From: Cenococcum geophilum
Taxonomy: Eukaryota
Length of the DNA stretch: 64,000 nt
Assembly (NCBI GenBank): GCA_050273025.1
Contig: CP158635.1
Span: forward strand, 9,982,001-10,046,000
Direction of reading: 5' to 3'
The position numbers and the translations under genes were made by a program. Shown here piece by piece: positions 6,288-64,000 of the stretch. The notes under the pieces are model-generated. The model was not told where the DNA came from. It was given only the letters and a program-made list of their open reading frames with translations, and searched no databases. The first letter of the stretch is position 1. Every line of letters starts with the position of its first letter.

Positions 6288-6369
6288 AAGAGAACCGTCG
6301 CTATATATTAAATTATCTAAAATAATATAATTTTATACTAACTATATAAACTAAGCAAATACTATTAAG

Positions 6370-7859: not shown

Positions 7860-8325
7860 CTATATTACGTTAAACCTATACCACCTTACCCTACCTAATA
7901 TACAGAACGACCTAGAAGCCCCTATATCTATAACTAATTTACGTAATATATTTACTCTATTAAAAAAGAAAATGGAGATCTAACTGCCGGTTTTGGAGGG
8001 TTCTATCGCCGTTTTTGGAGGTCGCGTCGCCAAAACTCCCCGCCGCCCTAAGCCTCCTGCTTGCCAGTCTAACGTTAAACCTCTTACTTACTGCCCTATG
8101 CCCTTGCTTTTTAATAGGTAAACTATAATCTTCTATGCGCCTGGCGCTAAAGCTATATAACTCTATAACTCCTACCTCTAATCCGTTTAATCCAGGCCCC
8201 GTTTCTCTTATTCTCTACCCCCCTATCTCCTTAACCCCATATTGCTCTTTAGATCCTTCCCGCCGTTATTACCCTTTAGGTCCCTCCCGCCGCCACTACC
8301 CTAAGTTCTCTTCTAGCTCCCTAAA

Positions 8326-10844
8326 ATGCGGCGCGCTTAATTATTAGATTGCAGCTTATTGTCTAGCGTTACTGATAATAAGTATATAGACACAGATAGC
8401 GACGGTAATAGCTATGGGATAGAACCGACCGTCTTTAACAGTAATGCCGATAGTGATGCCGATAGTAACGCCAACTATAACGCCAATAGTGGCATTAACT
8501 GTGACGCTAATAGTATCGCTAAATCTAATGATGCTTGCGAAGCGCCTGCTCGAGCATAGCTTTATAAGGATTAAGATTATCTACTAGAATACTATCTTAA
8601 ATAGTTAAAAGAGTTTAAGGAATTTAATTTTACGACGTAGGACTACGCCGATGGCAGTATGAATCTCCTTAACTGTATTAAAGATTAATAGTATTAGTAA
8701 GTAATAACCTGTTTTATGGCTTTCTCTTAGGCTTAACTTAGAGCTGACTATTTCTAGATACTATACCTATATAAGGAAAGACCCTAAGAAAACGTACTAA
8801 GTCCTCTCGCTTTAGCTGCTTTATAGCTTTTTTGACTAGCTCCTAAATTAGAAATGAGGGAAGGGGGGTAAGAAATAGTACGGGATAAAGCTTTCTAGCT
8901 CGCTTAGTGTATACTAGAAGTACTATCGCCTTATATATAAGAGAGCAACTAGTAGGAAAATTGCTAGTAAATTAACCCGCTAGATATATAAGGTAATTAT
9001 ATTCCTAGTTAACCCTTTAGCCTAGTAAAGTAAGGTAGAGCTAAAATATCTTTTCTAGGTACTTTAGAAACTGGCGAAGAAACATGGCTTAAGTAATAAG
9101 AAGTAAGAAAAGCCTGTTATAGACGTAGAGGATCTTGCCCTAGTTCTTAAAACCAACTTAGTTATAATGAGAAAGAGATATATAGTTAGGCGACATTGGA
9201 TATAAGTCTATTTCTTACTATAGCTAAGCTTTTACACTATAAGCCGACCTAAAGCTCTTCTTAATCTATGCTATTAACATATAATAGTTACACTTATTTA
9301 TAACCTAGAAGGTAGGCCTTATAAGATTATGCTTAAGTTTATATTCAAATTTACTAAGAAATATCTTAGCATAAAAGAAGCGTATATTCTCTTTCTATCT
9401 TATTCCTCTTACCTTATGCTTATAGAGAACTAATAATACTTTCCCAATTCCTAAGATTATTTTCAACCCTTTACTTATTTTTAGCCCTTACGTCTTTTTC
9501 CTAGGCCTTCTCTTTACTAACTAAGCTTTTGCACCCCCTAATCTAACGTTTATAAAGCAGCTTAGTAAGCTATATATTAAGCCTAGGCGTAATAAGTTAC
9601 CGCTGCCACTCTGTTTAGACCTAGATAATATCCCTATATTTCGGCGATTAATTAAAACCCCCTACGGCTATAAGGTCTCACTTAACGAGCCTTTACTATA
9701 CTTAACTCTTTTGCCCTAAATTAAGGACCTTAGCGTAATTATAGGATTTTGGTAGGTTATATGCCTATATAGTCTCCGTTACGGCGTAGGTAAGGCATTT
9801 AACGAAAATAGTGAGTTTTATTGTATAGAGCTAGTTCTACTAAAACCTTTCTAACGCCTATACTACCTAGGTAATGTAAGTGACGCCCTCCGGAACCTAA
9901 TAATGTAGTATGCTAACGCTCGAACATTCCTAAAGCACTACCTTCTGCGGCGTGTTAGCGTAGATATATAGGCAATCGTTTAAGGCTTAAAGCCTTAAGA
10001 AAAGTTAATGAAAGCAGTATGCCGAATAAGCCGATTAATTGACTTATGGCGGCTATAGTACCTAATAATAGAATAATCCTTATTGGTAAACGAGAACCCG
10101 CGTATTTATTTCTTAATTAAAGTTTAAAATAAGCTAAAGCTTAGCCTTAAGCGCAAAACTACAGGAAGTATAGAATACTAAAAGCTTAGCTAAGAAATTA
10201 TAAATAAAAGGCAACGTTAGAGAAATGCGCTATTAGAAAATATTAAGAAGAATTAGGATAACGAATAAGCTATAATTAATATTAAGCGGCAACTTTCCAG
10301 GGTTATATTTAGTGAGGATATTAAAGCAACCTTGAAATCTAGTAATAATAAATCAGTTGAACACAAACGCCTTATTAAAGTGATTATAACGCTACCTAGT
10401 ACGTCACTAGAAGATAAGATACGTAGACGTAATAATGCTATTAATACGGTCGTAGATTACTGTAATATTAAGGAGGGTAGAGCGTACTAGCCGAGTTATC
10501 GCTAGAGATAGTTTAAAATAGATATCGCCCTTGGCTAAGTTAAGATTAAAGAAGATGCTAAGATTTTAGAAGCGGCTAAAGCGCTAGAGAGGGTAAGGTT
10601 ATTCTTATATAAGGAGAAAAGACTAAAAATATGCTTTATCTGCCTTGGGAATAAAAAGCTTGTAATTAGTAAGTATATATATAAGTTCTATACTCTAGCT
10701 ACTATTATAAAACATTTTTAAGGTAGTTATCTCTTTAAACTCCTATAGTAGGGTAAGATTAAATATAACGTTTATAAAGTAACCCTTAAGTATAAAATAC
10801 ATCTTTAAAACTATGCGCTTAGTATATATAGGACCTTTTCCTAG
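8326..10844 (+). pseudogene. DUF3435 tyrosine recombinase (Starship captain) with C-terminal C2H2-like finger; multi-exon, RIP-inactivated
   Basis: ATG at 8326, then an acidic N-terminus. Motifs: EYYLK*LKEF...DYADG; FFD*LLN*K*GKGG...SSL..Y*KYYRLIYKRAT; L*LSFYTISRPKALL (catalytic R); FKFTKKYL; NTFPIPKIIFNP..SPYVF.LGLLF; YSLRYGVGKAFN; VSDALRNLIM*YANARTFLKHYL (catalytic H/Y region); ICFICLGN...KHF. GT-AG introns separate the blocks. Confidence 0.93.
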
Positions 10845-11375
10845 TTATTGCGCGCTTATCTTATTATTCTTTACTACTTTTTATTTCACTTTAGTCTGTT
10901 ATTATCCAATCCTATTATAGTATTTAATAGAATAGATATAATAACTGGGATTTTATAATTTGTTTAGGAGGGGTAATAGGTAAAATAAGGGATAAGGGCT
11001 CCTCTCTAGCCTTGTTATATAAGCCTTACGCGTTATAGAATAAACTAAAACCGATAATTATAGACTAGAAAACGCTGCCTCTTTATATTATGGCTTAGCA
11101 TTTTAACTAAGCCCTATAAAGCCTTAATCTAAGCCATATTAGGTTGGCTTGACTTTTCTATGTCCAATCTTTAATCCTCGCGTTTGCTCGCATCTTGCTT
11201 TTTTCCTTATACTTTTCTCCCTGGTTATTTCCTTATTATAAAACGCGCCCGACGTGTTCTTAACCTCCCTATATTTATTTGCTATTATACTGTCCTTATA
11301 TGCTAGCCTCTTTAACCTCCCCTTTCTGCCTACCTACCCGCCCTCCTGACGTAGCTTTTGGCGCGTTTGTTTATA

Positions 11376-13772
11376 ATAGCGAATTTCTTTAAATTAGAGA
11401 TAATTAAAACGAACCCTATTGGGGAAGGACTGAATAGCTTTCTTAATTTATTTAACTTAACTTATTAGGATCTAGGTATCCCTAGCTCTCTAGACTTATT
11501 ACGCCAGATAGGCAATAAAGGTAATTGTTAATTCATCCGTTATAGGTTCTCTCTAATATATATAGGGCTTAAAAATCTTACGGTTGACCTTATCCTGGTA
11601 TTATAGAACCTTCTCACTACTTAACTACTCCCGTCTAGCGCTAGCCGCGGCACTCTTTATAGTAACCTTCTTTAACTCCTCCCTTTAGTTAATTCTAACG
11701 ACTTTAATATTAAACGGTTTACCCCTCTCCTAAAAACAGTTATTAATCGCGAATTAGATAAGGACGTTTAAAGTAATACTATTACTACTATAACAGAGTC
11801 TATACCTCCCCCCTAACCGCTGCCACTCTATATTTAATAAACCCTATATTTATGTAATATAAGTAGCTTTACCAACTCGTCCGAATATAGGGAATACGTA
11901 GATTATGTTCTAAAGGAGGAGCTAGGCCCTTTTTATGTGGGGATTCCTAGCTTTTATAAAGCATTCTTTAAGGGAGTAGAAGGTCTTAAAAAGGTAAGCG
12001 CTGCCGTTTTTAAGAAATGTAAGAAAGGGAACAATCTACTATATGCTAAGGGCGGCTGGCGTAACTGGCCTAAAAGCGTAGAGCAAGATAATGTCCTAGA
12101 GTAGTTTAGTAGCCTAATTAAATTAATTTTAGGCTTTATAGAGAAGTATAGGTCCGCCCTAAAGATATAATAAACGCTTGTCGTATATACTAAGCAGCCC
12201 TTATAAGGGTCTATAGTAAAGCGAAAACTAGATATTGGTTTTGTGGATAATCTAATAGCTAGCAAAAGCTCTTAATACTATTAGTCGTATATACTTATAC
12301 TAGGAGAGCTAAAGAGTAATCTAAACTCCGATATACCCTTGTAGGCATGGTTTAATTTAGGGAAATATATAAAAGAAGTCTTCGCCACTTAAGACACTTA
12401 TTGCTTTATCTTAGGCTTTACCCTCTATAGATCTATTATGCGGCTATAGAAGTATAACTAGGTAGGAGGCATTGTATTATCATTATTTAATATTAATAAA
12501 GACGGACTACAATTTACCTTGGCGATGTTGGGATTTCTCTAAATAAATGAGGAGCAGCTTGGGTTTAACCCTACTATTCTAATATTAGACGGTAAATGAT
12601 ATATTAAGGTTATGCGTAATAATTAAACCGAGCGTCTTATCCTTAACGAATCTATAAAGCGGGCATGCTGTATTGCTGGTTAAGTAACTACTTACTAGAA
12701 AGCATACTATAAGGGGGACACCTTTAAGATACCCCTTGTTATTAAAGACTTGTGGTAGTACCTATAACGTAAGGAAGAAGGTAAACTGCTGCGTAAGGTA
12801 ATGGAGAAAGAAGTAGTTAACGTGGCTAGGTACTATTATTATAAGATAGTTTATATAGGCGGTAAAGAAGATAATATTTATAATAATGTCTGTAAGGGGC
12901 TAGATATTATAAGAGCGATAAACTATAAGCTAGAAAACTTAATAATGCCTCTAAGACCGGCTGAAGTAAAAATTAGAAAAGGCTAAAGTTCTAGTAAAAA
13001 GAGGTCGTCTAGCTATACTAACGCCCTATTACCGCCTAGCAAATATATATATTTGGGCTCTCCGCCTAAAGGTGGAAGGCACCCTATAACCCTAAATTGA
13101 GTATATTAACGCGTTATTACTAGGGACTATAGAAAGCCTCTTTATAAGGTAAGCTCTTAGGCTATAATGCTTACTATACTAAAGGGTAGTATTAAAGGAT
13201 ATAAGTCTTTATATACGCGGGCTGGTATTATTTAATATAACATTTTAATAGGTAACCTTATAATGAACGAGGAAGACGACAATCCTTCTTAGCCGGCATT
13301 CTTAATTGACTTTAATCTTATAATTAAGGAGTAGTAAGAAGGGCCTTTAGGAGCGCGGGGCAAGATTGGCATAAGAGCGTTTATAGCGATTAGAGTGCTC
13401 CTAGGCGAGATATACTTAGCTTAGCATAATCTTAAGTCGTTCTTTTAGGTGCTATTCTGGATATATATTTACTATAATAGACCTAATAAAAAAGGCAACG
13501 TTATTAATAGGTTTAATAAGTGGAATTCTATAGATACGGAAGAGCTAGCTAAGATAAAGAAAGGAGAAGTAGATAATAAAGGGGATTTTCTTAAGAGTGT
13601 AGATAATAACTTTTTACTATACTATTAGCTACTAATCCCTTAGGTTAATAGATTACGGAAGGTAGTATTTCTAAGCGGTAGAAGGCAAAAGGGAAAGGAT
13701 AAAAAACTTCCTTTTTAAATAAAGGAGGTGCTTTAGGAAGTAAGGAAGGATCTAAAGGTGCTAGTAGAGTAG
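11376..13772 (+). pseudogene. Fungal-specific FunK1 (Pkinase_fungal) protein kinase
   Basis: Motifs SSFTNSSEYREYVDYVLKEELG, KRKLDIGFVD, ILILGELKSN, FILGFTL..SIMRL*, LVIKDLW*Y, GII*YNILIGNLIM (HRD-like loop), AFLIDFNL, GKIGIRAFIAI and HNLKSFF*VLFWI. Confidence 0.92.
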
Positions 13773-15637
13773 ATAGAATAATATTTTATTATCTTATGCT
13801 CTTCTATATATAAGTGAAGTTTTACAGAGATTTGGGCGGTAAAGGCTAGGTAGTAGCCTTGGTTGAAATGTATATAAAATAGTATAGGGCAAGTAAACTA
13901 TTCCGTGGTTAATATATTATTCCTACTTATTTATACGCTACTAGATATGTAATTATACCTAAGTTTACTATAAGTGCACTAATCTCTAATATATGGTGAA
14001 AGCTTAGTGTATAAAATACTATAAGACCTAAAAAAGATACCTAATAAATGTAGCTAATAGATGGTTTCTTTTAGGTAATTGTAAAGAAATATGGTAAAGA
14101 TACTAGCAAAAACTATAGTAAAAGCCCGGCTAGTTATTGAGATTACTATATAGTCTTACGCAGCTTAAATTTAAACGGGTTGAGTACGGCGTAATATTTA
14201 AAAACATTAGGCAGAAAATATAGGAGGGAGGCTCTTTAAAATGGCTTTTAGAATCTAGTTTCCTTATATAGGCATAGGCCTGCTCTAGGAATACTTAGTA
14301 CCTTTTATAAGCTTTATTTTTCTATAAGTAGATAAAATGTGGCCCTATATAAATTAGGGATATAGTAATTTATTAAGCCCTTCTTAATAGAAATTATATT
14401 ATGTCGGGACCACTAGTTATTAAAACCCTGGGTTAAAAGTAATATTTTTTTAAGTATTTGCCCCTAAGTAAATGAGAACTATAGATTTATAGGTGAACAC
14501 CGCCGCTTTTAAAGGCCTATACGTTAACGTTGCCTATAAAAGTATAGTTCCTATCGCCGTTTTATTTCTAGCTTTAACTACTATTTCTCTCCTATAGCTT
14601 TATGCCGTCTATACTACCTATACTACTAGTCCTTTTCTATTCCTTCTATAGTTCTAGATATCCTTTAATAGTAAAACTATATATAAACCACACCCCTTTA
14701 TTTTAATTTAAATACTACTACTATAATATAAAAGATATTACTACGCCTTTAACTATAGCAAGCTTAAATATTCCTTCCTTATAGCGACGTGTAATGCTTA
14801 AAGGGCTTTACTAAAATCCTTTACGTTAGGTAAGATAGAGCCCTAACTAGCAATATAAATTAACTTATACCTTTTAGCTCAGTATGCATTAGTAAGTTAG
14901 TTCTTTATAACTAATAGGATTAGGCAATTGTATTTTAGGCCACTATGGCTAATTAAGCCGCTATTTAACAATCTATAAGGATTAACTTATAGGATCCTTA
15001 TTACGGTAAGTAACTCCGGCGTTTAGCTTTACGCACTACCGTTATGCTAGCGCTTTCCCTACTTAAGATAGTTATACAGCGAAAAACCTAGGTTAGTAGC
15101 GTGATTTAACTTTTAGATTGGATAGCATTATCTTCTAATTGCTTTAGCGTCTTAAGTTATATACCTATGTTGGTAAGTGGAGCTACCTAATATATTATAA
15201 GCTATAAGGATAAAGCCTAAGCAAAGTCTCCCTATGGGTATAGTAATTATATAATCTAGACCTTTTAATAGTAGCACCACTATATAGTATAGGGAGTGTT
15301 AGGGAGTAAGTATAGATAACCCGTTTTTACTATAGACTATAAGATAAAATAGCAAAGTTTAAGCAACCCCTTAAAGCCATCCTATGCCTAAGGCCGTTAG
15401 CTGAATCGCTATAATGGTACTATAAGGCGCCGAGATAAGAATTTTCTCTTAGGTTGCGGCAGATCCTATATCTTATCGTATTAAGGTAAGCGGGGTTAAT
15501 AGCTAGTATATTAAGGCTAGAATCTGAACTAGTTTATGAGCTAATAAGCTATAAGATAGCTAAGTTCCAGTGTAACAGAGTCTCTTTAATAGTAGAGTGA
15601 GTCCTTAAAGAATTCTAAGGTAGTAGGCTTAATTAGG

Positions 15638-15877
15638 CGATAACGATCAAGTGGGCGGTAGATGTATTAGTGATATAGTAATTATACCAGAGAGCTCCGC
15701 TTAATACTACTAGGCCTAACTATACGACAATAGAGTGGGCAGTAGGTATGTTAGTTGTATAGCGATCTCTAAAGAGCCCCGCCCGCTATTATTAAGTTTA
15801 ATTATGCGATAATAAAGTAGGTGGTAGGCGAGTCAATCCTATAGCGGTTATACTAGAGAGCTTCGCTTGCCACTATA
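15638..15877 (+). repeat. Three degenerate ~80-85-bp tandem units (GTGGGCGGYAGRYGTRYTAG...GAGCYCCGCYYG)
   Basis: Unit cores at about 15651, 15735 and 15817; homologous to the inverted array at 35.5-35.9 kb. Confidence 0.75.
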
Positions 15878-16009
15878 AATATAGCATCCTTTATTTATAT
15901 ATTGCCAACTTTTAGGTATATAGGCGACCTAATATACAGAGCTAGAAGTATCTGTGAGACTCTAGTTGCTATCTATCCGCTACCGGCGTATACCGTATAA
16001 ATGTTAACT

Positions 16010-17163
16010 TAATGGTAGATTTATAAGCTAGAGCGCTAGGTCTAAGGGATACTTAAGCCGTATAATAGACTATAGTATATAGGATCGAATTTGAACCTAG
16101 TATATGGCGCCTTTACCTCTATAATATTTTACTTAGATAATAAACATCACTACTAATATACTTATCTCTAAAGTATAAGTATTAGTGGCTAGAGGCTGTA
16201 TATAGCATCTAGTAAGTTTGTCCGCATTAGCGAGCCCTAAAAAGGCGATTCTGAATCATTACCTTAGACTATAAGATATAAAGCTTCTGCTTTCGCTAGT
16301 AGTTTTTAAGTATCACCCCCTTATAGTGTATATCTTTTATTTACTAGAATGCATTCTATACCAGAGTTTAGGACTATAAGCCCTAATTATATATTTAATG
16401 CTATAGATTAGGCCTAAGGACCCTAACCCCTATTTTAACCTATAAACTATATATTAACAACTTTATAGAGGCCCTTATAAATATACGGAGCGAAAGTCTT
16501 AATTATCCCGCCTTTAATCCTAATAGTAAGACTGATAGTCTTAATTTACCAGAATGTAGTAGCCTAGGGATTATAGTTGGATCTAATAATAACAATCCTC
16601 CTAAAACGAAGCGAGAACTATAGTTAAAGAAGTTTACTAAGTTTAACCCTTTAATCTATCCTAAGGAGACGACTTTACAATACCTAATAAATACTAAGCT
16701 TTATTCATTACCTAACGCTCTATCTCCTCGCTTTTTAGTAGAGCCAATAATTATATAAGGATATTTAACTTAGGCCGGAACTATTATTGTTAGGAATTAA
16801 ATATATAACTAGTACCTCTTGCCTATAGAAAACTATCTAACCTTATTATACGGAAGCCCTCGACCTATATTATCCCAAAAACCGATTTTCTATTTACGCG
16901 TATTATTGGGTTTCTATTTACCCGTATCTTCCTAATTATTGGGTTTACCCTAATGAATAAGATAAGCGTTTATAAAAAAGGATAATAATAAATTAATTCT
17001 ATTAAGGAGCAATAACGTCTGGTAAAAGGATATTATAAAGGAATTTCCAGATTAAACCTAGGTAAGTTTATAGATCTACTATTACGCTTAGTTAACAGAG
17101 AAGGTAAAGAAGACTAAGGATGCTAAGGGGCCTAATATGTCTGATATTGAAGAGGTAATGTAG
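16010..17163 (+). pseudogene. Myb/SANT-domain protein (domain about 16966-17095)
   Basis: AFIKKDNNKLILLRSNNVW*KDIIKEFPD*T*VSL*IYYYA*L matches the Myb pattern F..EDD..L..L.....W..I...FP.RT..SLQ.HY...L after de-RIP. Gene start uncertain. Confidence 0.62.
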
Positions 17164-18799
17164 TAGTAACCGTTTATAGTTATACCCTAGTATCCGCGAA
17201 ATAAAATATACCTTTTTTTAACCAATTAATGCTATATCTTAATAACTTGGCTCTATTTAGTCGCAGGCCTTTAGTAGAGTTATGTCTTTTAGCGCTATCT
17301 AATTCCTAGCTAAAGTATTTAACTAAAGTACTCTATAAACGATAGAATACTTTAGCGGTAACTCTACCCGCACTAGCATATTGTCCTCTTTTATATTACT
17401 GTATATTTAACCGTCTAATCCCTTATATACTATATTAACAGCGTTATAAATTAGTTGCTGGCTAATAAAGCACCTCTTTTTAAGTATAGGTGTGCAGTAC
17501 TAATATTCGCGGATGTGTTCTTTAAGTAGGTCTAGTATTAACGTCTCTAATATAGAGAGTTACTGACAATAAGACGTCGTAGGTAAGGTAGGGAAGTATA
17601 CGGATCTTAGGGAAGTTATTTCTTATATAGAACTTTTAAAAGTTCCCAAGCTATATAGTAAAAAAAGGACTGGGGTATAGGCTATTACAAAGGCTATTGG
17701 GCGACTTAAGGTATCTAGTATAAGCTAGGTAAGCGCCTAGGGTGAGCTAGATAAGCGCCTAGGGTAAGCGCTTAGGGTGAGCTAGGTAAGTATCTAGCGT
17801 AAATAAGTAAGCTGCTAGCTAAGTAAAAGGCGAGCTACGGCTTTATTTAGATTAAACCCGAGGTATATTTCTATAAGTTGCACTTTTGGCTATTTAACGC
17901 ATCTTTAATTAAGTTTATTGTTTTGCTTTAGAGATTATATTCCTACTAACTATACTTTATTCTATTAAAGTACCTAATAACTAGTTAACCTATTTATCTA
18001 TATTATTTAGTCTCTCCTTAATCTTAAGGACCTTCTTTATTACCACCTCTATCCCATAATTACATCGCCTAGCTATTTACTTAAATGTTTTGTGATTAAA
18101 ATTAAGAATTAATATATTATAATCTAAATCGCTAATGCTAGTTTTAATATCCTATAGTTGACACGCGAAATTTTCTAGCTCCTTCTATTCTTTATTAATT
18201 GCCTTATAATAATCAAAATAGATATACCTACTTTGCTATTACTTAGCTCTAAGTTATTAAACCTGTTTTCTAAGGTCTTCTAAGGTCTTTGCTAATGTCT
18301 TTTATTGCTACGTAAATGCTTCTAGCCGCGCCTTATATATATATTGCCACTTTATAAGATAATTAGCTAAAGTAGCCCTAGTACCCCTCTTTGGGTACCA
18401 TTATACGGCTTATATTATATTATAAAGAGGTTTAGAGACTTTTTTGACTTTTCTATCTTACTTTGCAGGATGCAGCTATAGCGGCTAGTTAGTTAAGTAA
18501 ATTTATTAAGATCAGACGCTAGCTTATGTGGTAATATATAATATAACTAGTAAAAGGATTATAAAAGTTCTTAATTAATGTATAGCTATTAATAATAGGG
18601 CTTAGTTATTAAAAAGTGGGAAAAGTAAAAACTTATATATTTTATATATTAGCCGCTCTAATGCCCCCTATAATATTTTAGGTATATTAAGTTATGTCTT
18701 AACTAATTCTAACGTCTATATGCGTTATACTATAACTAACTAATTTAGCGCTGTATCTAAAGTTAGAATAAGGCTGGAAATATCTTCCACTTCCGCCTT

Positions 18800-19887
18800 A
18801 TTATCCTTTTAGCTACCTAAATATATAGGATTAGGCACAACGGGCCCGGTAATTTAAGTAAAAACTTATCCTATTATACCGTTAAACCTATAATAAGAGA
18901 TAAAACCTAGAAACTGTACTTTACTAAGAGAAAATAGCGGCTGTAAAGAGGTTCTATTAAGGAAGTCCTAAGCTGTATTTAACTAGCGTTTTGGGTTTTA
19001 TAGAGTAAGGCTAGTTAGTTACTATAAAACCGTTCCGGGCTCTATTAATTGCATTATAATACGGCTAACAGCCTTTATATTAATATCCTCCGAATAAAAA
19101 GCCGCTTAAAGTATACTTTTACCTATATTTGCTGCTTAACCGTTAGCTTTTTATTTTAGGATAATTATTAGGTACTTACTAATCTTAATTTCCCTACTCC
19201 TTAAAATTAGGAGATTTTGGCAATTTAATAAGCTATAAATAATATAAATGCTATAGATAAATAGAAGTCCTTAGATTACCTATATTTAAAATTAAAGGCT
19301 AGTTTTAAATAGAATAGCTATATTACCTCCTTATAGACTATAGCAATTTTAAACTCTGCTAATATTTTAAAAGGGCTGGCCTAGATATCTGCTAACGATA
19401 TGGACAGGCACTTGTATATTAGATATACTATTTCGCCCTCTTTAAATACTTCTAGAATATTGATAATATTAGGGTGAGGTAACTTTAAGCATTCTAAACC
19501 GTTTACTGTCTTACTTGTCACTCTTATCTTAATAACTATAATAGGGAAAGTTGGCTCTATTTTAAAGGTAATAACCGTAGGTCCTACCTAATCTTCTTTA
19601 AGTAATTTGCGGTAGTAGTTTTACGGACTTTTTAAGACTATAAGGGTCTCTGATTCCTTTAATGGTGGAGTAGTTTTTTTATTATCGGCGGTAGATGATA
19701 ATAAGAAGAGCCCTAAATCTCTATTAACTTTAAGCGGAATATAAAATGGTATACGCTTGCGCTTATAAATGTACTTTCGTTTTATAAGTATATTAGGCCG
19801 ATCCTAATCCTCATTCGCGGTAGGTTTAATTGTTTTAGCGTTTTTTTTATATGCTAGAAATTTAGTAACCCGTCTTTATAAAGACAT
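18800..19887 (-). pseudogene. Protein kinase-like (probably pseudokinase) gene downstream of DUF3723
   Basis: ATG at 19887. Reads SP*NYYRKL..., IIVIK, HPNIINILEVF, YLIYKCLSISLADI, VI*GLLFIYS...IIYSLLNCQNLLILRSREIKI / intron / ANIGKSIL. No canonical HRD or DFG is recoverable. Confidence 0.72.
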
Positions 19888-20349
19888 TTTTCTCTTTATT
19901 AAAAAATTATGCTTTACTATAATATATATATATACTTCTTCTAAAAAAAGAATTCTTAAAATAAAACAAATATTAGAATATTATATAAATTTAAAACAGC
20001 TCTTTTAACACTATATATAAGATATCTAAAAATATATACATTTATTTAGGGATCTAGTTAAAAGGCCATTGACGCAGTAGAGTATCTATATTATCTCTAC
20101 TTTGAATAAAATAAGAGATTCGGCGTATCTTATAGGCTGTTTCGTTAGGAATTGGATTTAAGGACTAAGTATTTCCCCCTAGCTTATTCGTATCCCCTAT
20201 AAAGACCAACCCTTTTTTTTATCTCCCCTATACCTCCCATACCTATCCACTTAAAACGCTCTCTATTAGCAATAAAAAAATTATGCCTAGTATTCGCTAA
20301 ATCCACTAAAGTGGATTTAAATCTTGGAGACAACGCTAAGAATATATAA

Positions 20350-21770: not shown

Positions 21771-22238
21771 TGTTGGTACCAATTTAATGGTATAAGTGAG
21801 TCGTGTCTAGGGGCACAAAATACGTATAGTATCGTATGCTTATTTAGACGGTGGTGACTGTCGATTCTATTGAGGTAGACTACGTGGTCTATATACTGAC
21901 GCGCCTCCCCCCTAATTAGTCAGCACGTAGGTGGTTGGTGCACGAACGCGTATTTACGCGTTCGTACACCAGGTGCTATAATTATACACTGGCGGTACTT
22001 GGAAAATGAAACCACTTGTGTACAGCCTCCGTAATTACCTTAATAGAACCATAAAACACATAAGAAAATACATAGGAAATCCCTCCTGAGGTGCCTTCTG
22101 GGTTGCCTTCCAAATGGTGCTCCAAGCTGGCCGTAAGTCCTGCTTACGGTCCGTAAAATGAACTGTACGGCCTTTTGACGGGCTGTAAATGCACCGTACG
22201 GCCTTCCGACGGGCCGTAGCTGAACTATAAATGCTCCG

Positions 22239-27239: not shown

Positions 27240-27742
27240 ACTGTGTAGTGTAGTATAGTGCGTAGCGGGTGGAAGAGGTCTTGTGAGGGTCTGTAAAATC
27301 GGTTGACGGGCCTGTAACGGTTCGTAGAAGGGTAAGGGGGTCTCCGTAGGGTCTTAACAGGTCCGTAGTGGTTTGTAGGAGGGTAAGAGGTCTCTGTAAC
27401 GGTCCGTAAAAGTAATTAATGGGTCCGTAATGGTTCGTAAAAGGGTAAGGGGTCTCTGTAAGGGGTTAGAGAGGAGGCCGGGGTATTTTAGTAGGGTGTG
27501 GTGGTTGCGTTCTTGGTGTAATTGTGTTCTTAACGTGGTCGCGTTGACTACTAGTACAGTGGTTAATATCTCTAATTAAGGTGGAGCGTAAACGTCTTCC
27601 AAAACTAGGGTAGATTTAAGGTAATTCTAGGTAAGGTGGAGCGTTAGACGTCTTCCAAATCTAGAGTACTTTAATTCTCTTTAACTGAAATAGGGGCTTG
27701 TAAGGTGGAGCGTTGGACGTCTTTTAAGCAAGTGCGTATCTC

Positions 27743-52695: not shown

Positions 52696-53899
52696 AGCTA
52701 ATTTAGAGAAATCACGATTGCAAGCTTAGAAGGGAAATTTTAGGTATTAAAATTGTAAGCTAAAATATATAGAATAAATGGAGGAATTGGAACTATAGTA
52801 GAAGCTTTAGAGGATTAAGAGGAAATAAAATTGTGTTGGATTTACCCTTACCGCCTACCCCGCTTCCTAATAGCTTTAGTATATAATAACAATTTAGTTG
52901 GCTTCTAATATCCCTTAACTTTAGCACGCTTTTAAGCTCGCCTTTTAGAGATCTGTGTGCTCCTTTAAGGAGGGGGTTATTCTAGAACTATAGCAGTTAT
53001 AAAAGTACTTTATTAAATTATTGCGGTAAGCGTAACGTGGTTCTTAAGAGCGGCATTCTTTTTTCGTCCACCCTTAGGCTTTTTATAAGTTTTGGCAACC
53101 CTTAAGCAGTCCGCTATTGTATAAGCTTCGCTAGTATGCGTATTAGGACTTTGTTAACGCATTTAAGTGACCCTTTACTTAAGGCGATTACATATTTGTC
53201 GTTAAGGGATTACTATAGGTAGAGGGCTTACTTCTAGATTTTTTTATCGGTCGATAGCTGTCGGTTTTAAGCCCCAGCTATTATCCCAAATGCCCTCTAC
53301 TTTCTACCACTTTGCTACTCTCTTTATTGCTAATTTCTTAATATCTAAACTAGTTTTGCTAAGTCTCCCTTTAATATAGTCATTGCAAAGCCGTTCTTCC
53401 TTATTAAATTAGTCTTAATTAAATCGTTAATTAGGGCGTACTTAATAGGTGTTAACGGCGTATATAGGCTTAGGGCTAGGGCTATAAGTTAGCTCTTCTA
53501 AGTAATATAGGGGTGGTAGATTATTAAGAAGATACCGTCTATACTTTAGATCTTATAGATTAATCGCTTTAAGAGTACGTTAAATTTAGGTAAGAGAATG
53601 TAACATTCTAGTACTTCTTAGAGGTAAATAAAATATAGGTAAAGGGATAAAATAAAGGGATAAAAGCGGATAAGATGCGGGATTTAGGTGAGATGGCGTG
53701 ACCCTAAGTGGTAAATATAGGGCAGGGACCTAAAGCGCTAGGATATAGCTATAGCAGTATACTACTACGCCCGCTGTGCTAGAACTAAGAATAATAACAT
53801 TATAGCTTTTTCCAGAATAAATAACCTTACGCCTTATATAACCCACTCTTTATTTAGCTTTCTTACTACCTTAGATATACTTGGTGTGTAAGATTATAT

Positions 53900-55660
53900 A
53901 AGCTTTATTAGTGTAGAGATAATAGTGCTGTGCCGCTTCTTAGGTAGTACGGCGGCCATTATTATAGTAAAATTAACGGCACTGCACTTAAATCTAGAAA
54001 GCTGTTTATTATTAGTCCTATAATAAGCTTTTCTAAAAATAATAAATTTGTAATATCTATGCCCTCGGCTATTATTACTGTTTATATTAAAGCTAATAAA
54101 TATAAAAGCGGAATAAGTAGTTTAAGATCTACTTAATCGTTATCTAGTGTCCCAATTACTAGATAATGCCCTAGGACTAGATATTAGCCCGCTTCTTAAC
54201 TTACGCTCTTTAGAATATCTTACTATTATTAGACGTTTAGATTATAATATAACGGTTTAGGAACCCTAAATCTTTAGGCTTTAATACGAGTTCTATATTC
54301 TTTAAAGTGGAGCTATTTTTCTTTAAGACTATAGCAGCTAATACACTACCTAGATCTTAGGGGCGCGTTTTACCCCCTTTAAGGCCGGTCGCAAGCGTAA
54401 GGTTATTCTACTCCCTACTAGAAATACTAAGATTAGAATAGGTAGCATAGCTTTAATACTAGTTCGGTTTAAGTTTCTCTAGCATAGAAATAATATCCTA
54501 AAAAAGTTAGAGACTTAGCTTAGTAACTTATCTAAAAGGGTAGAGGACCCTAGGCTTACGCGGATAGTTAAAGAAGTGCCGACCGTTCTACTATCTCGAT
54601 AGATAATAAGAATCTATACTCTTATAAAGGCACTAGGGATGCGATATAAAACCCTATAGGGTATTGGCAAAGGCTAGTTTAGGGCGGTTTTCCAAGCTCT
54701 TAATATAGATTTTGGTGCGTATATTATAAAAAAGTCAATTCTATTAGATAAAGCCGATTTAATTCATATTAAATAAGAGGTTAAGACTATTGCATATCTT
54801 ACTTATATACGTTTAATCTCTTACAATATATAGTTGTAATAATTTTTATCTATACTAACTTTTTCTATAAATATATATTGTTAAATATATATAGTATAAG
54901 ACAACTACTAGTGCGATTAACATATTTACTAAACTTATAGATAGTTTATTAAATAATCTCCGCGGCTTAAGCAATACCTACTATTATCCTATCGCCTTTA
55001 ACTACATCCTCCACGCTCTTAACTATTTAGATTAGAATTTATTTATTTATTAGGATATTAAACCTACTAATATTCTCTATAAGGCCACTACTAGTAGCCA
55101 TTACTTCTAGCTAGGGGATTTTGGCATCTATAATAAGGTAGTATTTATAAAAACATATTATGGTATAAGCCTTTATATAGCACCGGAGGTTTATACTAGG
55201 GGAAGGTAGTTAGTAAAGGCTAACGTCTAGTTATTAGTAGTCACTATATTTAATATAAGAGATAAGTATAGGTTCTATTTAAGATTAGAGGCTCTTTATA
55301 CAAGATTAAATCTTAGGGATCTATCTTAGTAGGCATCTTAACAAAATATATTTAATATTGTTAGAGTTATAGCAAACGAGACACTATTTAAAGACTTAAA
55401 AGCGATGGTCGCTTTTAGTCCCCTATAACGCCCCTTAGCAGCTTAGTTACTTTTATAAGCCTAAAAGCAACTTTAGAAGGCTGCTAAAGTTTAGGAGCCA
55501 CCTTAAAAGAAACTAATTAATACTAGTGTTGAAGTAAAAACTAAAATACCTACTAAACTAGATATAGCACAAGTTATATAATAAGGGAGAGTCGGCCTAT
55601 CTTTATAGGGTATATTAAAAGGCAAAGTTCAAAAGGAAGACATTTCACTATATCTTAGTT
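53900..55660 (+). pseudogene. Ser/Thr protein kinase with a possible FHA-like N-terminal region
   Basis: GIGKG*FRAVF (Gly loop), EVKTIAYL, IY*DIKPTNIL (HRDIKPxNIL), LGDFG, YIAPEV and KANV*LL. The FHA-like part (*IFRL*YEF) is tentative. Confidence 0.85.
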
Positions 55661-55689
55661 AAGAGCCATTTACCTATTTTATTTAAATA

Positions 55690-56880
55690 GTTTGCTTCTA
55701 TATACACTTATCCCTTATATAGTAACTAAGAACTATTTTATACCTTTTCAATCTCCAAACTATTAAGGAATATAGTTTGCTCGTAAATAGCATCTTAATC
55801 CCCTCTTAATAGGTATATTTTCTAAAGGCTAGCCTTTTAAAGTGTTAAGCGATAATTTTTAAGGAATTTTAGAAGAGTTTCCTTAGTAATAGTCGCTCGC
55901 TAAAGAGTAAAAGACTTAAGGTATAGAAAGCGGACCCTCTTAATGCTTTTAAGAATTAGAGGACTAGCATTACTAAGAAATTTAAAGAAGAAGCCTAAGT
56001 TAAGGACTTAGATATTTTCCGCAGCTAATAGGAAGTTTATAGCTAATTATATGTCCCTTAGCTTTACGCCTTTCGGCAATAGTTAAGGATAAATATCGTT
56101 AGTACGGATTGTGATTTAAAGAGTAATAAGGGTTTAAAAAGCCAGTTTTAAACGCTTAAATTACTAACCTAAAATTGTATAAAAAGCTGCAAGGTTGACT
56201 CTATTGTCTAAAGTATTAATATTAAATTTAAATAGATCTAGCTTAAACTTTAAGATTGGGATAGGGTAAGTAGTTAGTGTAGTTAAAACGGTTTTAAAGG
56301 TTTTAATAACATCTATATTCTATTTAGCGGTAGTCTGCTAATAAATAGTTATAATACCTTAACTAGGAGTTTGATCTAATGACTTAGGCCTATAGATTTT
56401 AACTTGACGCAGGTTTAAGAGGTTGCGTAATATAACTAAGAGAATTGCACTTTTAAATCCTAACCTCTTAGCATATTCTTGGTCGTTATATAGGATAGTA
56501 AACTAACACTAATCTTATATTATTAGAGGGTTATTATATAATTCTTTGCTTAATAGCCAGACCTAAAGGTCCTAGTTTTGCTTTAGCTGTTTAGTTCTAA
56601 ATCTAAAAGTCTATAGGCGTTTAGTAAAGGGTCCTTATAAAATTTCTAGTAAGGTTTTAAAAGCTAGTCGGGAAAGCATAAAGCGTTTAGTTATAAAGAG
56701 ACTACTAAAATAATTAAAGCAGTAATATTTAACTTGTTAGTATATAAGTTAGAGAGCTGCTACCGCTTCTATAGGCAGGAAACTAAGTATTTTTTTAAAA
56801 AGTTTAATAGGTAGATTAACAATTATAATAAAATAGTTATTATTTCTTACATTATTATGCTAGAAGTCCCTACTATTAAT
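55690..56880 (-). pseudogene. F-box protein with a C-terminal LRR-like region
   Basis: IVNLPIKLFKKILSFLPIEAVAAL*LIY*QV (F-box LP.E....I...L.......LRL.C) near the N-terminus. FLYLKSFTL*RATITKETLLKFLKNYRLTL*KASL*KIYL near the C-terminus. Confidence 0.72.
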
Positions 56881-58571
56881 ATTATATTATAAAAACGTCT
56901 TTAAAAAAATAATAAGTTAAAAATAGATAAGTTAAAAATAATAGTATAGTGGAATACTAAAGCGGCTTAATAGACGCCGACTATAATCGCCTAAAGCGCC
57001 GTCTGGTATATACCTTAGGAAAAACCCTAAACTGTGCTAAGTACCCTCCTACCCACTTATTTTAGTATAAACTTTATTAAAGGCGGATATATTTAATCCT
57101 ATAAAGGTTAGAACGCTTTAAAGAAGATATCTTATAACCTTTACAATTTATTCTTTTGTTAGTGGCTATAAAGGCCGCTTAGCAGATATATATATAAATA
57201 GTTTCCCTTTATAGCCGATAAGAATATAAATATCTGCATTACTAAGGCATTGTAGCTCCTCCGCTTTTTTAAATACCGTTTCCCTTCTTTTATAAATTAG
57301 TTTATAGAGTTATTTAGCCTTTACCTTTTAAATCTTCGTATCTAGATTTAGGCGTAGTATTAAGTCAATACTAGTCTATAATTTGCACTACTTATAACAC
57401 CTAGTGCTCTTCTTGCTCTCTATGTTAGAATCTAGGTATTTTATAAGGCGTATAGTGGTAGGATAGCAGTATAGTAAATAACGAGACGTAAGAACTAGGG
57501 TAGGTAGAAAGCGGTATATAAAGCTTACTTTAATAAGGAAGGGGGACTTAATAGATAAGGGTAATTTTATAAAAGATAGATATAAAGTATAGAGGCTAAG
57601 GTATTAAGGTATATAATTTATAGGAATAAAGATAATAAAAATAGAAGTTTAAAAAATATATATATAATAAAAGCTTAGCCGCGAAGTTTAATATAATAAA
57701 CCTTAAAGACGTAATACTTAAAATATAAAACAACCCTAGTAGCACTATATATAGGATTGGGGCATAAAATTTCAGAATTAGGGGGTAATTAATTAAAGTG
57801 CCGCTTAATATAATCTATTATCTTTGTAGGTTAACACTATGCAAAATAGTAATTAGGGTTTGGTAAAGATTTATCTTAGAGCTACCGTATATAAGGGACG
57901 GCGGTAATACTTTAAGATATCCTCGTTTTTAGATTATAGTACTCTTTTTAGCTTAAAGGTCTATTTCTAGTTTAGCATTCTTATCCTTAGTGTATTTAGT
58001 AGGAGTATCTTATAATTACTAGTCTAATAGATTTAAATTCTTTATATGCTCCATATAATATATAGTAGTAAAACTCTAATTACTGCCTTGCGTAAGCTAT
58101 ATTCTCACTTAGCCTAGTTATATTGCACTATGTTTCTATATTTAAAGACTAAGGTAATTATATAACCGTGTCTGGGTTCTAGAAATAATTAGATAAGTGA
58201 TTAGACGGTGCCGTCTTCTTCTAGTAATATAATTCCGTCCAATTTTTAGATTCCACCGTTTATTAGCTAAAAGCTTAGGATTAGTTATCGCTTTTATTAT
58301 AGTATATTATTAGGCCCTTACTAAGTTGCACGTAAGAGGCTTAGTAGGGGCTATTACGTATAGGCCGAATTCTCGCTTAACTTCCCTCTATTCTCCCTAC
58401 CTTAATTATATATTTTAGAGTCTTAGCAAATACCTTATCCAACTAAGGATAATTCTAAGTTTAGACCTTTATCTCTTATACAAGCGCCCAAATTATAAAG
58501 TAAGGAGAATTAGAATCCCTCTCTATTTGTTTCTAACACATATATATATATAGGTATTACGACCATTGTAG

Positions 58572-59470
58572 ATGCCTCCGACAGACTATACTATTCGTTA
58601 CCTATATAGTTTAAACGGCTAAGATATAGTAGGCGTTAGAATTATAGCACTAGTTGCTTATCTTAATGCTATTATAAAGTTCGCCCGGCCTACTAAGCTG
58701 CCGTTTATTAAGAGGGAAAAGTATATCTACTAACGCCTTAGACAATATTATAATAGTATCCTTTAATTTTATAGGAGCCTAGAGGATGCCCTTATCCTAT
58801 AGTATACCTGCAATGGTTCTATAAGATAGTACTTTGCGAAACAAGCTAAGCCGGTTCCGCTACCACTATAACTTCGCTAAATTTAACAGATTATAGTTTT
58901 AATCGCTTTTATCTACTCTAAATAGGTGCTATATAGGGATATTTCTTGTAATAATGTTTTCCTTAATAAAGAGCTTAATGCGAAGCTTGGCGACTTTGCT
59001 AGGTTATTAATTAATAGTTAAGCCCCTCTTATCTATTATAAGACCAGTTATAAGCACCCTAAGATTAAAGGAATCTCTATAAGAAGTAAGGTATTTACTC
59101 TTAGCTCTACCTTTTATAAAATAATAATAGGATTAAAGCTATATAAGGAGCTTTTAGACTAAGAAATATATAATATATATATTAAGGGAAAGTTTCTAAA
59201 CCTAGCCGCTCTAGCTACGTTTAACGATATTATTATTAAGTGCTAGGCCTAAGATTATATAAGTATAAATAAATTGCTAGAGGATGTATAGGCTAAAGGT
59301 ATAATTTTTAGTTGGTGAGGTATTTAGTACTAATAACTTCTAGTTACTGTTTAGTTAAGACTTATTACGTAAATTAACATCTTTACTATTCTTTATTCTA
59401 CTATACTCCTAATAGCCCTTACTCTTATTTCTCTACTCCCTGTTATATTCTAGGTAAGAAATCGTAAATA
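58572..59470 (+). pseudogene. Small TKL/tyrosine-kinase-like protein kinase with hydrophobic C-terminal tail
   Basis: ATG at 58572. Reads REKYIY*RL, L*YTCNGSIR*Y, LR*I*QI...AFIYSK*VLYRDISCNNVFLNKELNAKLGDFA, VFTLSSTFYKIIIG and IIIKC*. Confidence 0.88.
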
Positions 59471-62400
59471 ATAAGGCTAGGTAGTAGTATTCTTATATTA
59501 TTAGCAGAGATCTAAGTTTTTTTTTTAATTTACACTTACCTTTAATTAAGGCGGATACTAGGGATATTCGCCCACTTTCCTTAATAATCCCATTACAATT
59601 ACTTTACTATTTTAACCTTTGGCTGGTGACGTATTAGGGCAGAAGTGCCTATTAGCTTTAGCTCTCTAGCATTTATCCTAGCTGCGTACTAATTAAATAT
59701 ACTAAGCCAGTGCCCTGCATTCACTATAGTAAAAGGAGTGGTCGTAGTAGTAATATATTATATAGTTAACGATAAGTGCAGCTGGATTTAGTAAGAAGCT
59801 CTTATTTAGGAGGGAGAGTAGATTATATAAGAAGACTAGGTAATAGGGAGACTTATCCTTTTATATAGTCTTTATAGCATTTTACTATTACTCTAAGTAA
59901 TAACAGGTCTACTAGGTAAAGATACTATTCCTTATTAAAAGATATAAGGATTATCCCAAAACGGCCGTATATAGATATTCGTTGCCTATAAATCTATACG
60001 CGCGATCTTCTAGAAGTGGATATTACTAAATCCATCTAATATATAAACTTAAGTATTACTAATAAAGCGATCCACTACAGTAATTTAACTCTATTAATTT
60101 TCTTCTGCTCTCTAAGGGGATAGCCCCAAACTAGACGTATATAGTTGTTTATCCTTAAGGATTAAAAGGAGCTAAGAATATAGTATATCTAAGCCTTTCC
60201 TAAAGCGCAGAGAATTGCCTTATGATATTAAAGTCTGCAGCGTCTTGGCGCTGGTTTAGTAAAGTTAATAGTATAAATTACTTATTATAGTAGAGGATGG
60301 CATTAATTAGCTTCTTCTAGTGAGGTACTTCTGCCACGTCATGGCTCTCCTCTATAGCCGCTATTATTATTTATATTTTGCACTCACAGTCTTGCAAATT
60401 AATATAGCGCGTAGTTGTTTATATTACTCTCTACGAACTAATATACTACACTTTATTAGAAGCCCCCTTTTAGCTAGCTAGTTGCCCTACTTACTTTAGT
60501 AAAGTTTTAATAAATTTCTAACAAAGTTTTAATAAACAGGAACTAATTAGGGCGATATATAGGTATCTATAATACCAAGCCGCTGTTGTTTTTAGTAAGG
60601 GTTAATGCTATAGCCGCTATAGGGCTGCTTAGTATAAATACTATTAAACTTTTAACCAATTTCCAACTAACTTCTAACACTCTCTATAATACTACTGTTT
60701 ATATTATAGCCCTTTAGCCACGAGTAATTATAAAATCTAGCCCTATATAGCCAAAAATATCTCGCTATATACTATTAACTATCGCCGCGGCAATAAAGAA
60801 GCTTTTTAAGGCCTCTAAATTAATTATATATTAAGAAGGTGTAAAGCTAAATAAAGGGAAGCGTATCTAATACGCCTTTATATTATTGGCGAAGCTACTA
60901 AAGGGCGCTTTAAAGACCGCGGAAAGATAGAATTATTATTAATAGTTTTTAAGGCAGGCCGAAAGGGTTAGTAGCCGCGAAATGGTTATACTTTGCGCCG
61001 TCGGCCTAGGGCAATCTTTAGTCGCTAGTATAAGGGATTGTAATAGGCTTTTACTTCCTTTAGAATTTAAAGGGTATAAGAGCGCTTATTAGTGCGATGT
61101 CCTTAGGGATATAGTTAAGAAATACTCTATAAAAGGTGTGGAAGATTATAATACTTTTAAAGTTCTATCGCTTAATCACTCTAAAAACCCCTATGGATTT
61201 CCTACTAGTATAGCCGGCGTCACTTATAGGGGATGTCTACGAGCTTACGGTTGCTAACGCTTAAGGCGTAGTTATATCCAATTATCTTAAAGGCTAGATA
61301 TACTTAATAAATATATATAGAGTAGAGTCTGCGCCATTTATTACGATTCCTATTTTAAAGGAGCTTAGTAACTATTTTGCTATATAGTATTAGTAAATAA
61401 TGTAATAAGTCTAAAATATATCCTACTTCTTCTTAATATACGCTAGCCTAGTAGATCCTATACTGTAATAATACTAATTATTACTTTAAGGAACCATTAC
61501 TATGTATCCTTAATCCTCTATCCTAACGCCGCCTTTGTATTTGCTATCCCGCCTTTTATAGATTAGTACTACTCTAATATTATTTCGTATATTAACAACG
61601 ATGGCAACAGTGCTATTTGGGGGGTTAGTTTATGTACCGTCTGGCTTTATCTAGTTAGGCGCCTTGTAGTCGCCGCAATTGGTTTAAAGCTATAGTTAGA
61701 TCCCACTATTATAGGCCTAGGGAGTTTTCTATCTCTTCCTTATACTCCCTTATAAGCGCGTCTTCCGAATTATCTTTAACTCTAGTTTTCCTAATTATGC
61801 TGGCCATAGTATAGTAATCCACGACAATTAAAGTGAGTTATAATTGGTGTCTCCGTCGCGTAATATATATGCCGTTAGGAAGCCGAGCCTAAGGGTAGAT
61901 CGCGGTAATAACTAATAGAGCTATTATACTAGCAATATATAAGGTTAAGAGGAGGGTAGTCGTGTTATAGGCTTATAAAGATAAAGAGAAACTAAGAAAC
62001 TAAGTAAGAATTCCGGTAAGCTTCCTATAAATATTAAAGACGTTCTATAGATTTCTTTAAGGGAAATATAATAAATATACAAAGTTTAGTAAAAGGGGCT
62101 TTAATAAAAAGGTAATAAGGCGACGATATTGTTGTTAAGAGTAACCGCATTAGCTAAAACATTTTTAGGTAATAGGCGTTTAACGCCTAACCGAAAAACT
62201 ACGCTACCCTAAGTGGTTAGAGGGGCAAGAGCGATATATAACCCCGCCTAAGCCTATTCATTACTATAAACTAACGTCTAGATATCTGTACTGCGCTCTA
62301 CTTAACGTATATAATAGAGAGGGAAGTAAAGCGGAAAGTATTTACGTGGATTTTGTTATAAGATTATCTACTTAAATCTATAAGCTAGGGAAACGCCTAA

Positions 62401-62489
62401 TACTAAGCATATTGCTAGCTAGGAGCGGCTTTATTAAGGATTATACTTCTATTTACTCTCTTATATACCTCCTATAGGTGTAAAAAGCT

Positions 62490-62570
62490 AGAGTTTAGTT
62501 AGAGTTTGGTTAAAGTCTAATTAGAATCTGGTTAGAACCCAGTTAAAACCTAGTTAGAGTCCTATTAGAA
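62490..62570. repeat. Degenerate 11-bp tandem repeat (AGAGTYTRGTT)
   Basis: About 7 visible units. Confidence 0.65.
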
Positions 62571-64000
62571 AATAGCCGCGAATTAGTAAATAACTAAAGT
62601 CTAAACCTTATTCTGCACTTCCTTTAAAGCGTCTCTATTTCGCCATAATATATTATAATATACTAGGCGTATAGAGGCCGAGCTAGATAAAAGAAATACT
62701 TTAATCTTATTTGTTAAAACGCCTAAACTAGCTCCCTAGCTTCCGTTATCGATTTAAATAGTAACCTACCCCTTTAGGATCAGAGCCGCGGTCCCTAGTG
62801 CGTAGCGATCTCTTTATATATATAGTAGTAATATGCCTATATATATGCTCTAGCGTCTCCTAAGGGGGCACTAATGAAAAACGATACTATTAGCTTCCTC
62901 CGTATACTTAGCTTATTACTAGTTTTATATATATAAGTAACCTCCTATACCAAATATAAGGTTCCTATAATCTACCACGATTTTATTAATTAAAGTAGTA
63001 TATATATACTATGGATTCCGGAATAGCTCTAATATTAAAATCCATATATTACCCATACTTTACCTAGACGGAAAATTATTGTCATTACCTTATAAAATGT
63101 GCGACTATATTTAAATAAAGCTTAAATGCGGCCATTTTATTAATAGAGTAAAAACGTAGTGCCTAAAATACTATAAGACCTATAAACTATGTCCTTCTAA
63201 TGTTATAGAAATGTAAATATAGAGACCTTCTAATCCACTCTAAGGTTATTGCTTACGGCGTGATTTAGAAAGGGCTACCCGGATAAAAACTGCGGTAAGC
63301 TTCGAAGCAGCTAAAAAGATTGGGTGGTTAGCTTATTAAAACGTATAGCGGACTGTTAATTAAAATTATAGATAAAGTAGAGGATATAATTTGCCTTTAA
63401 AACGAGGTTATTAAAGCTCTAAATAACGCGAATTCTTAACGCTTTATTGAACTCCCCTATAGGAACCAATGTTCTATAGCTTCCGTTCTCCTATTCCTAG
63501 CTAAGTAAAACTTAAAGATAATATCTACCTGGCTAAGTCTTCGTCCTTATAACGCTATAGCTTACGCTTTACCTATTTTATGGCTTCCTCTCCGTTTTCT
63601 ATCTTTTTAACTATATCTAATAGCACTTTGCCTAGCTTCTGCGACCTATTTAAAAGAAAAATCCTAAGTAGGGTAAACCGTCTCCTATATAGGGGGGAAG
63701 CGCTTAAAGTAGGACGGAAACCAAATATGTCTAAGACCTATAAAACTGTTAACATATAAAAAGCCATATTATTTATAATATTTACCTTAACCTGCTTAAG
63801 TTGGTCATTAAAGGAGATCTATTTAAAGAATTTTTAAGAAGATAGAGCATTTTTTATCTAAAGCCAATTATTCCTATCCTCTACCTTATATTCTACCTGT
63901 TTAATTATTTCTAGCCCGCCTTTTATAAGTATAAGATCACCTAAGAATACCGTACGTTTAACTACTAAACTATTAGAATTAAATATCCCTAAAAAGATAT

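Follow-up and report, generated by a model that had tools for sequence, protein, structure and literature searches.

Mobilisation of Starships by a recombinase and the repeat-induced point mutation (RIP) of duplicated sequence are established mechanisms in fungi. Here we examine a tract of decayed Starship-type genes in a 64,000-nucleotide stretch of the genome of Cenococcum geophilum (GCA_050273025.1, contig CP158635.1, positions 9,982,001 to 10,046,000 of the forward strand; hereafter the window, with position 1 as its first letter). The closest described systems come from four sources. Gluck-Thaler et al. (2022, PMC9156397) define five Starship gene families as well as degraded regions; DUF3723 and patatin-like phospholipase (PLP) have adjacent locus tags in their Voyager reference, and a region is called Starship-like when a DUF3435 recombinase gene, the "captain," is colocalised with DUF3723, ferric reductase (FRE), PLP or NLR genes and lacks target-site duplications (TSDs). 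RIP on duplicated Starships has been demonstrated experimentally in HEPHAESTUS (Urquhart et al., 2023, PMC10104507). According to PMC11162782, Starships are low-copy elements and make up a superfamily of their own, apart from Cryptons. O'Donnell et al. (2025, PMC12256816) locate the MYB/SANT gene of large Starships at the edge opposite the captain and report the two together in 23% of elements. In the literature on Cenococcum and Starships, we found no Starship analysis of this lineage; of the few papers that contain both words, the one examined has "Starship" in its reference list only.

By the working definition of PMC9156397, the tract is a Starship-like region, in which the DUF3435 gene is accompanied by three of the named families, DUF3723, PLP and FRE. 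We suggest, with a probability of roughly 0.6, that the DNA starting at about 7.93 kb and reaching 52.2 kb or further derives from a Starship, was killed by RIP and was then overlain by other repeats. The relics that carry this interpretation are as follows.

7927-11003, + strand: DUF3435 recombinase unit, with coding blocks 8440-8685, 8756-9382 and 9435-10841 and a putative ATG at 8326.
20659-21770, - strand: DUF3723 relic, C-terminal part (PF12520 profile positions 178-507 of 508, E 4.8e-53, about 20659-21648).
27987-28501, - strand: DUF3723 relic, N-terminal part (PF12520 profile positions 1-155, E 2.3e-23, about 27986-28501).
29357-32412, + strand: PLP relic (tblastn blocks 29357-30292, 30495-30896 and 31537-32412).
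50869-52213, + strand: FRE relic (blocks 50869-51378, 51423-52064 and 52163-52213).

Such genes are rare in comparable DNA. A background tblastn search at E ≤ 1e-5 of 1.14 Mb of related repeat-rich loci returned no DUF3435, no FRE, no Helitron Rep/helicase and a single PLP, and four signature relics within 45 kb are therefore unlikely to have met by chance. It is likely that the recombinase and the DUF3723-PLP-FRE part once belonged to one element. An earlier reading of the letters alone (the sequence-only reading) had named a DUF3435 recombinase at 8326-10844, followed by DUF3723, patatin and FRE relics, and had taken this set, captain first, as the signature of a Starship. The published definition agrees with that choice of genes, and all four relics were recovered with the recombinase on the + strand and the other three downstream.

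The recombinase relic is full-length. In the stop-read-through translation used for all relics (TAA and TAG read as Q, TGA as W), it matches PF11917 in two + frames (E 2.1e-73 and 1.6e-13). Its best phmmer homologue (P0002, 734 aa, E 1.8e-121, 47% identity) is aligned by tblastn over residues 10-734 of 734 in three colinear blocks; the gaps of 70 and 52 nt between the blocks look like two introns. The closest homologues are DUF3435/C2H2 proteins of 617-760 aa, to judge by sequence of the type found as captains. The named relatives belong to Dothideomycetes and Eurotiomycetes and include six short fragments from C. geophilum itself (47-67% identity). A tblastn search with P0002 found no second DUF3435 relic elsewhere in the window. 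A repeat boundary precedes the gene by about 400 nt; this junction may have arisen through a later insertion and need not be the terminus of the element itself.

The DUF3723 gene was recovered as two PF12520 pieces on the - strand. The PLP relic, divergently oriented to it at a distance of 856 nt, was identified by phmmer of 30600-32399 against 5.8 billion proteins, which gave P0053 (E 1.8e-11) and P0054 (E 4.9e-7), the latter a 1022-aa patatin-like phospholipase with PF01734. P0054 was placed by tblastn in three colinear blocks (E 1e-17, 4e-14 and 8e-17). At 30789-30896 the patatin motifs GGGVRG and GTSS have become NSSGIRG and GISSS, through G-to-A changes. For FRE, an exhaustive phmmer search with 50800-52701 returned 309 proteins at E ≤ 1e-3. 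Ferric_reduct was found in 12 of the 16 homologues that were profile-scanned, nine of which also carry FAD_binding_8 and/or NAD_binding_6; the best match, P0055 (E 2e-31), contains all three domains, and tblastn covers residues 1-414 of the 471-aa query. Neither relic gave a Pfam match on its read-through frames even at E ≤ 10, and phmmer against PDB returned chance matches only. Since both were confirmed by other routes, these negatives reflect low sensitivity; even intact members of the FRE family reach no more than about 20-52 bits with Pfam, which accounts for the failure to detect the FRE relic.

RIP in the window is supported by three lines of evidence: the composite index, the excess of transitions and the position of the stops. 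RIP is recognised by high TpA/ApT, low (CpA+TpG)/(ApC+GpT) and transitions between copies. The composite RIP index is 0.94-1.45 in 32 of 32 two-kb bins, and the differences between copies in contig run X1 (see below) are nearly exclusively transitions (2,312 versus 54 transversions). The GC content is 28-43% in the window and 28-37% in the saturated end state of RIP seen here. In the recombinase, 44 stops are aligned to the homologue, 4 of them opposite gaps; 32 of the other 40 stand opposite Q, R or W, which make up 14% of its residues, and these are the nonsense changes that RIP is expected to cause. Only one open reading frame (ORF) of at least 150 aa survives (37452-38150, - strand). Its K/E/R-rich product comes from a purine/pyrimidine-skewed low-complexity tract with many Tandem Repeats Finder (TRF) arrays, and it is not a gene relic. 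The genes killed by RIP are thus invisible to ORF callers, and PLP and FRE were missed even by Pfam. The sequence-only reading was right that the stops are due to RIP and that no gene survives as an ORF; it erred in holding that the relics can be read only after RIP is reversed, because all of them come to light when stops are read through or when intact homologues are used in tblastn.

Compared with the described systems, the tract joins a known kind, the RIP-degraded Starship-derived tract under later insertions. It resembles the Starship-like and degraded regions of PMC9156397 in its genes, in having no defined TSD, in the neighbouring DUF3723 and PLP and in decay after duplication. Unlike those regions, every gene here is RIP-dead, no NLR was found and the recombinase unit reaches about 10^2 copy equivalents. 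The spread of RIP across a whole duplicated Starship, with C-to-T and G-to-A transitions, is shared with HEPHAESTUS as reported in PMC10104507; that case concerns one laboratory sexual generation and a TTAC(N7)A target, whereas RIP in the window is saturated and later insertions lie on top. There is also a likeness to Cryptons, namely, a small multicopy unit with essentially one recombinase gene and no long terminal repeats (LTRs): the high-depth recombinase unit is about 3.1 kb long and holds the recombinase only, and its ends are set just by neighbouring repeats. Unlike in Cryptons, the domain is DUF3435, that of Starship captains, and the recombinases of Starships form a separate superfamily according to PMC11162782.

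A history consistent with these data would begin with an active element that the recombinase cut out whole and re-inserted with its cargo. Once at least two copies shared one nucleus during the sexual cycle, RIP would have changed C to T and G to A until every gene was destroyed. The dead tract was later overlain by a copia LTR retrotransposon, which entered DUF3723, and by a truncated FunK1-kinase repeat behind the recombinase. We infer this mobilisation and RIP for the present copy by analogy with described elements. The overlying and intervening sequences are the following.

10996-13900, + strand: FunK1-kinase repeat fragment (here F), with the kinase domain at 12225-13463 (Pkinase_fungal PF17667, E 7.1e-78, profile positions 1-386 of 387).
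13901-20658, no strand assigned: tract without a family match (no Pfam match in six frames, about 10-15 copy equivalents, common to 0 of 80 F loci).
21771-27986, - strand: nested copia-order LTR retrotransposon of 6,216 bp, with LTRs at 21771-21988 and 27769-27986.

The retrotransposon inserted into DUF3723 and split the gene. It has the features of a Ty1/copia LTR retrotransposon: its LTRs are 96% identical, its ends are TG..CA and a 5-bp TSD (AGAAG) stands on both sides (left copy at 21766-21770). An rve match (E 0.002) lies at 24558-24803, and the gag knuckle, protease and reverse transcriptase, with the integrase before the reverse transcriptase, were identified by eye in the translated frame. 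Its GC content of 42-43% indicates that it is younger than the surrounding sequence.

To place F, we used a metagenome scan with the FunK1 relic, which yielded 80 loci (1.14 Mb in total) of 118 relatives. By blastn, about 11.0-13.9 kb is the only part of the window shared by 63-80 of the 80 loci, and none of them shares 8.0-10.5 kb or 14-21.7 kb. Of the 58 loci that extend far enough on either side, 50 have the right end of F at 13894 or 13900, and the commonest left end is 11022. Other copies extend beyond both ends of the copy in the window, which is therefore a truncated fragment. F thus represents an independent repeat family. At least 118 relatives of the family are present in the metagenome contigs, with a conserved stretch of about 4 kb in 56-79 loci; as its flanks are further shared by 15-38 loci, F may belong to a larger element of at least 13 kb. 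We found no paper that links DUF3435 with FunK1. The idea that F was split by an insertion of about 49 kb and resumes at 63.4 kb was rejected: 63451-63500 is a short motif that occurs several times after F in other loci, and in locus L069 the 690 nt between F and the homologue of 63498-63999 match neither side of the window. That segment, 63498-63999, is 94% identical to L069:12352-12853, which follows the FunK1 repeat of that locus at a distance of about 0.7 kb.

Abundance was examined in 24 contig runs, of which 20 contain part of 6001-16000 and 5 contain half or more of its words. The contig sets comprise 124-4,310 million letters; four runs (X1, X5, X6 and X21) were mapped on 4001-24000 at a likeness of at least 88%. 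No evidence was drawn from parts of the window that no contig covers or from the small shares that runs X11-X24 contain. In X1, 41,028 contigs map on 4001-24000, mostly 90-95% alike, and the depth of a single contig is 82-111. The summed depths in X1 are as follows.

8003-11337, recombinase unit: 6,450-14,089.
11338-14005, F: 16,002-26,367.
14006-21342: 727-1,690.
LTR element: 66,000-251,000.

Summed depth is not a copy number, and only ratios were therefore used. The recombinase unit is about ten times as abundant as the tract after it. The same depth steps are seen in X5 and X6, and X21 is far lower throughout. X21-X23, one lineage under the same species label, contain only 3% of the sampled words, and depth at the recombinase and FunK1 units is far lower in X21, as would follow from amplification in particular lineages or from strong divergence. 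Only one feature of the tract was unexpected, the unusually high copy number of its recombinase unit.

The left flank and the satellites consist of other repeats.

1-3600, + strand: copia-type pol relic, cut by the window start (RVT_2, E 1.1e-20, 1807-2472; SH3_retrovirus, E 1.6e-7, 904-1116).
3608-4172: satellite, 12-bp unit, about 47 copies.
5626-6017: satellite, 20-bp unit, 20 copies.
6146-6287: satellite, AGGT, about 35 copies.
6737-7540, - strand: C-terminal ~270 aa of a Helitron Rep/helicase (phmmer E 3.6e-77 to P0001; Pif1_2B, E 2.2e-4).
32655-32907: 17-bp satellite, TRF 12.8 copies.

The Helitron homologue P0001 (1499 aa, PF14214 and PF05970) is aligned by tblastn over residues 1201-1464 only, and its N-terminal 1,200 aa were absent from the window by tblastn, so that the fragment has no bearing on the right end of the element. 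The repeat that holds the fragment is among the most abundant in the genome (summed depth up to 206,000 in X1). It extends to at least 7926, since two loci (L013 and L071) match 7509/7607-7926, and the recombinase unit consequently starts between 7927 and about 8003. The start at 7860 proposed by the sequence-only reading is close to this point. Insertion into the Helitron had seemed to be marked by loose ends at 7873; this boundary was rejected as an indel artefact, because the 30-nt continuation of these ends was found nowhere else in the window, part of it can be aligned again immediately behind 7873 if an indel of 2 nt is allowed, and both loci match through to 7926. In many other loci, the FunK1 repeat is followed by the 17-bp satellite and the ~50-nt motif at 63451-63500.

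Further gene relics lie to the right of the PLP gene.

45748-46113, + strand: JmjC domain relic (PF02373, E 2.2e-8, 35 bits; gathering threshold 24).
54874-55281, + strand: protein kinase relic 1 (Pkinase, E 2.4e-11, 44 bits).
57196-57294, - strand: weak MADS-box (SRF-type) relic (SRF-TF, E 3e-5, 23.8 bits, below the gathering threshold of 26).
58707-59189, + strand: protein kinase relic 2 (PK_Tyr_Ser-Thr, E 2.1e-7, 30.9 bits, gathering threshold 23.1; Pkinase, E 2.3e-7).

The Pfam scan covered six frames of 4001-8304, 11001-54602 and 54999-64000, three + frames of 8001-11002, one + frame of 1-3999 and one + frame across 54100-55599. Together with the FunK1 kinase, these host-type relics (JmjC, two protein kinases and the weak MADS box) had gone unnoticed in the sequence-only reading, as had the nested LTR retrotransposon and the Helitron and copia relics of the left flank. 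Four loci (L073, L029, L030 and L028) carry diverged copies of the region of kinase relic 2, and L073 matches its segment 58530-59888 at 76%. The best PDB matches of the MADS relic are SRF, SEPALLATA3 and MEF2A (E 0.019-0.77), and it is the sole DNA-binding relic found. Between the relics, no Pfam match to a transposase or reverse transcriptase was obtained in the frames scanned apart from the nested LTR element. The JmjC, kinase and MADS relics fit cargo better than they fit an ordinary graveyard of transposable elements (TEs).

Several observations weigh against a Starship origin of the tract. No right edge was found within the window, no empty-site joint spanning the element was found in the four runs on 4001-24000, and, satellites and the LTR pair aside, there were no inverted or direct terminal repeats in the window. 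Rfam families and tRNAs were looked for without a match, and hence no 5S or tRNA target was found. F stands between the recombinase and the DUF3723-PLP-FRE part, and as neither of its ends is complete, its junctions near 11.0 and 13.9 kb are scars of rearrangement or insertion rather than original joints. The only second copy of the PLP region, a 3' half of the gene (L016:1-1956, matching 30868-32770 at 85%), ceases to be colinear with the window where the 17-bp satellite lies, near 32.9 kb; beyond position 1956, L016 matches only L004 among the loci, and not the window. With depth as a rough proxy, the copy equivalents are about 65-140 for the recombinase unit, 160-260 for F and 10-15 for 14-21.3 kb, and the recombinase unit thus departs from the low copy number described for Starships. 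Neither a NACHT/NLR match within the claimed element nor a Myb/SANT match at E ≤ 0.01 was found in the frames scanned. The Myb/SANT relic named in the sequence-only reading was therefore not confirmed, in a scan of low sensitivity that also missed PLP and FRE; since PMC12256816 gives MYB/SANT together with a captain, at the opposite edge, for only 23% of elements, this failure decides nothing.

The sequence-only reading went further and saw one fossil Starship of 45 to >56 kb, colinear from about 7.86 kb as far as 52.7 kb or more, and probably beyond 64 kb, with only secondary insertions inside. The four signature relics stand, and their order and orientation fit, as do the Helitron fragment without its other half anywhere in the window and the lack of a right-end signal before 64 kb. 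However, depth falls ten-fold at about 14 kb, F is a truncated piece of an independent family rather than a clean nested insertion, colinearity with L016 ends at 32.9 kb, and neither boundaries nor an empty site were found, the supposed joint at 7873 being only an indel within a left repeat that runs to at least 7926. We therefore regard a single fossil element as possible but doubtful; in its present state, the tract is a mosaic of several repeat families with a left edge at about 7927-8003. The depth profile might also be explained by a small (about 3.1 kb), cargo-less, multicopy DUF3435 element, similar to a Crypton or a solo captain, lying by chance or preference beside an older captain-less degraded Starship ("derelict") with DUF3723, PLP and FRE. 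The high-depth unit at 7.93-11.0 kb is roughly as long as the gene by itself, its depth of 6,450-14,089 compares with about 1,000-1,700 beyond F, and PMC9156397 reports both that DUF3435 repeats were first annotated as Cryptons and that captain-less degraded Starships exist. Yet if contig sets of 146-210 Mb contain about 100 copies, we estimate the chance of one lying within 13 kb upstream in the right orientation at below about 1%, and the closest homologues are, as far as sequence tells, 617-760 aa proteins of captain type, which makes such a juxtaposition unlikely.

A tract that is not Starship-derived at all, but an ordinary RIPed repeat graveyard or a segmental duplication that includes host genes by chance, seems to us very improbable. 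The entire window including its flanks is indeed RIPed and repeated, and many of its pieces match scattered loci without colinearity; against this stand the four signature families within 45 kb, compared with no DUF3435, no FRE and one PLP in 1.14 Mb of similar DNA, and the high Starship specificity reported for DUF3723 and PLP in PMC12256816. A Starship-derived tract, inactivated by RIP and later overlain, thus remains our preferred interpretation. A more far-reaching idea, which we consider somewhat unlikely, is that the captain lineage was an ordinary multicopy transposon, a captain-only "mini-Starship" of about 3 kb that bridges Starships and Cryptons and reached about 100 copies in a TE-bloated genome, some copies having kept or gained DUF3723-PLP-FRE before RIP silenced the family. 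If true, such a lineage would contradict the view of Starships as inherently low-copy.

These results suggest that Starship-type elements were once present in a very repeat-rich fungal lineage and were inactivated there by RIP. A practical lesson is that RIPed Starship fossils escape ORF callers, yet can be recovered by stop read-through or tblastn. The high copy number of the captain, if true, would bear on the kinship between Starships and small Crypton-like elements and on the share of Starships in genome expansion.

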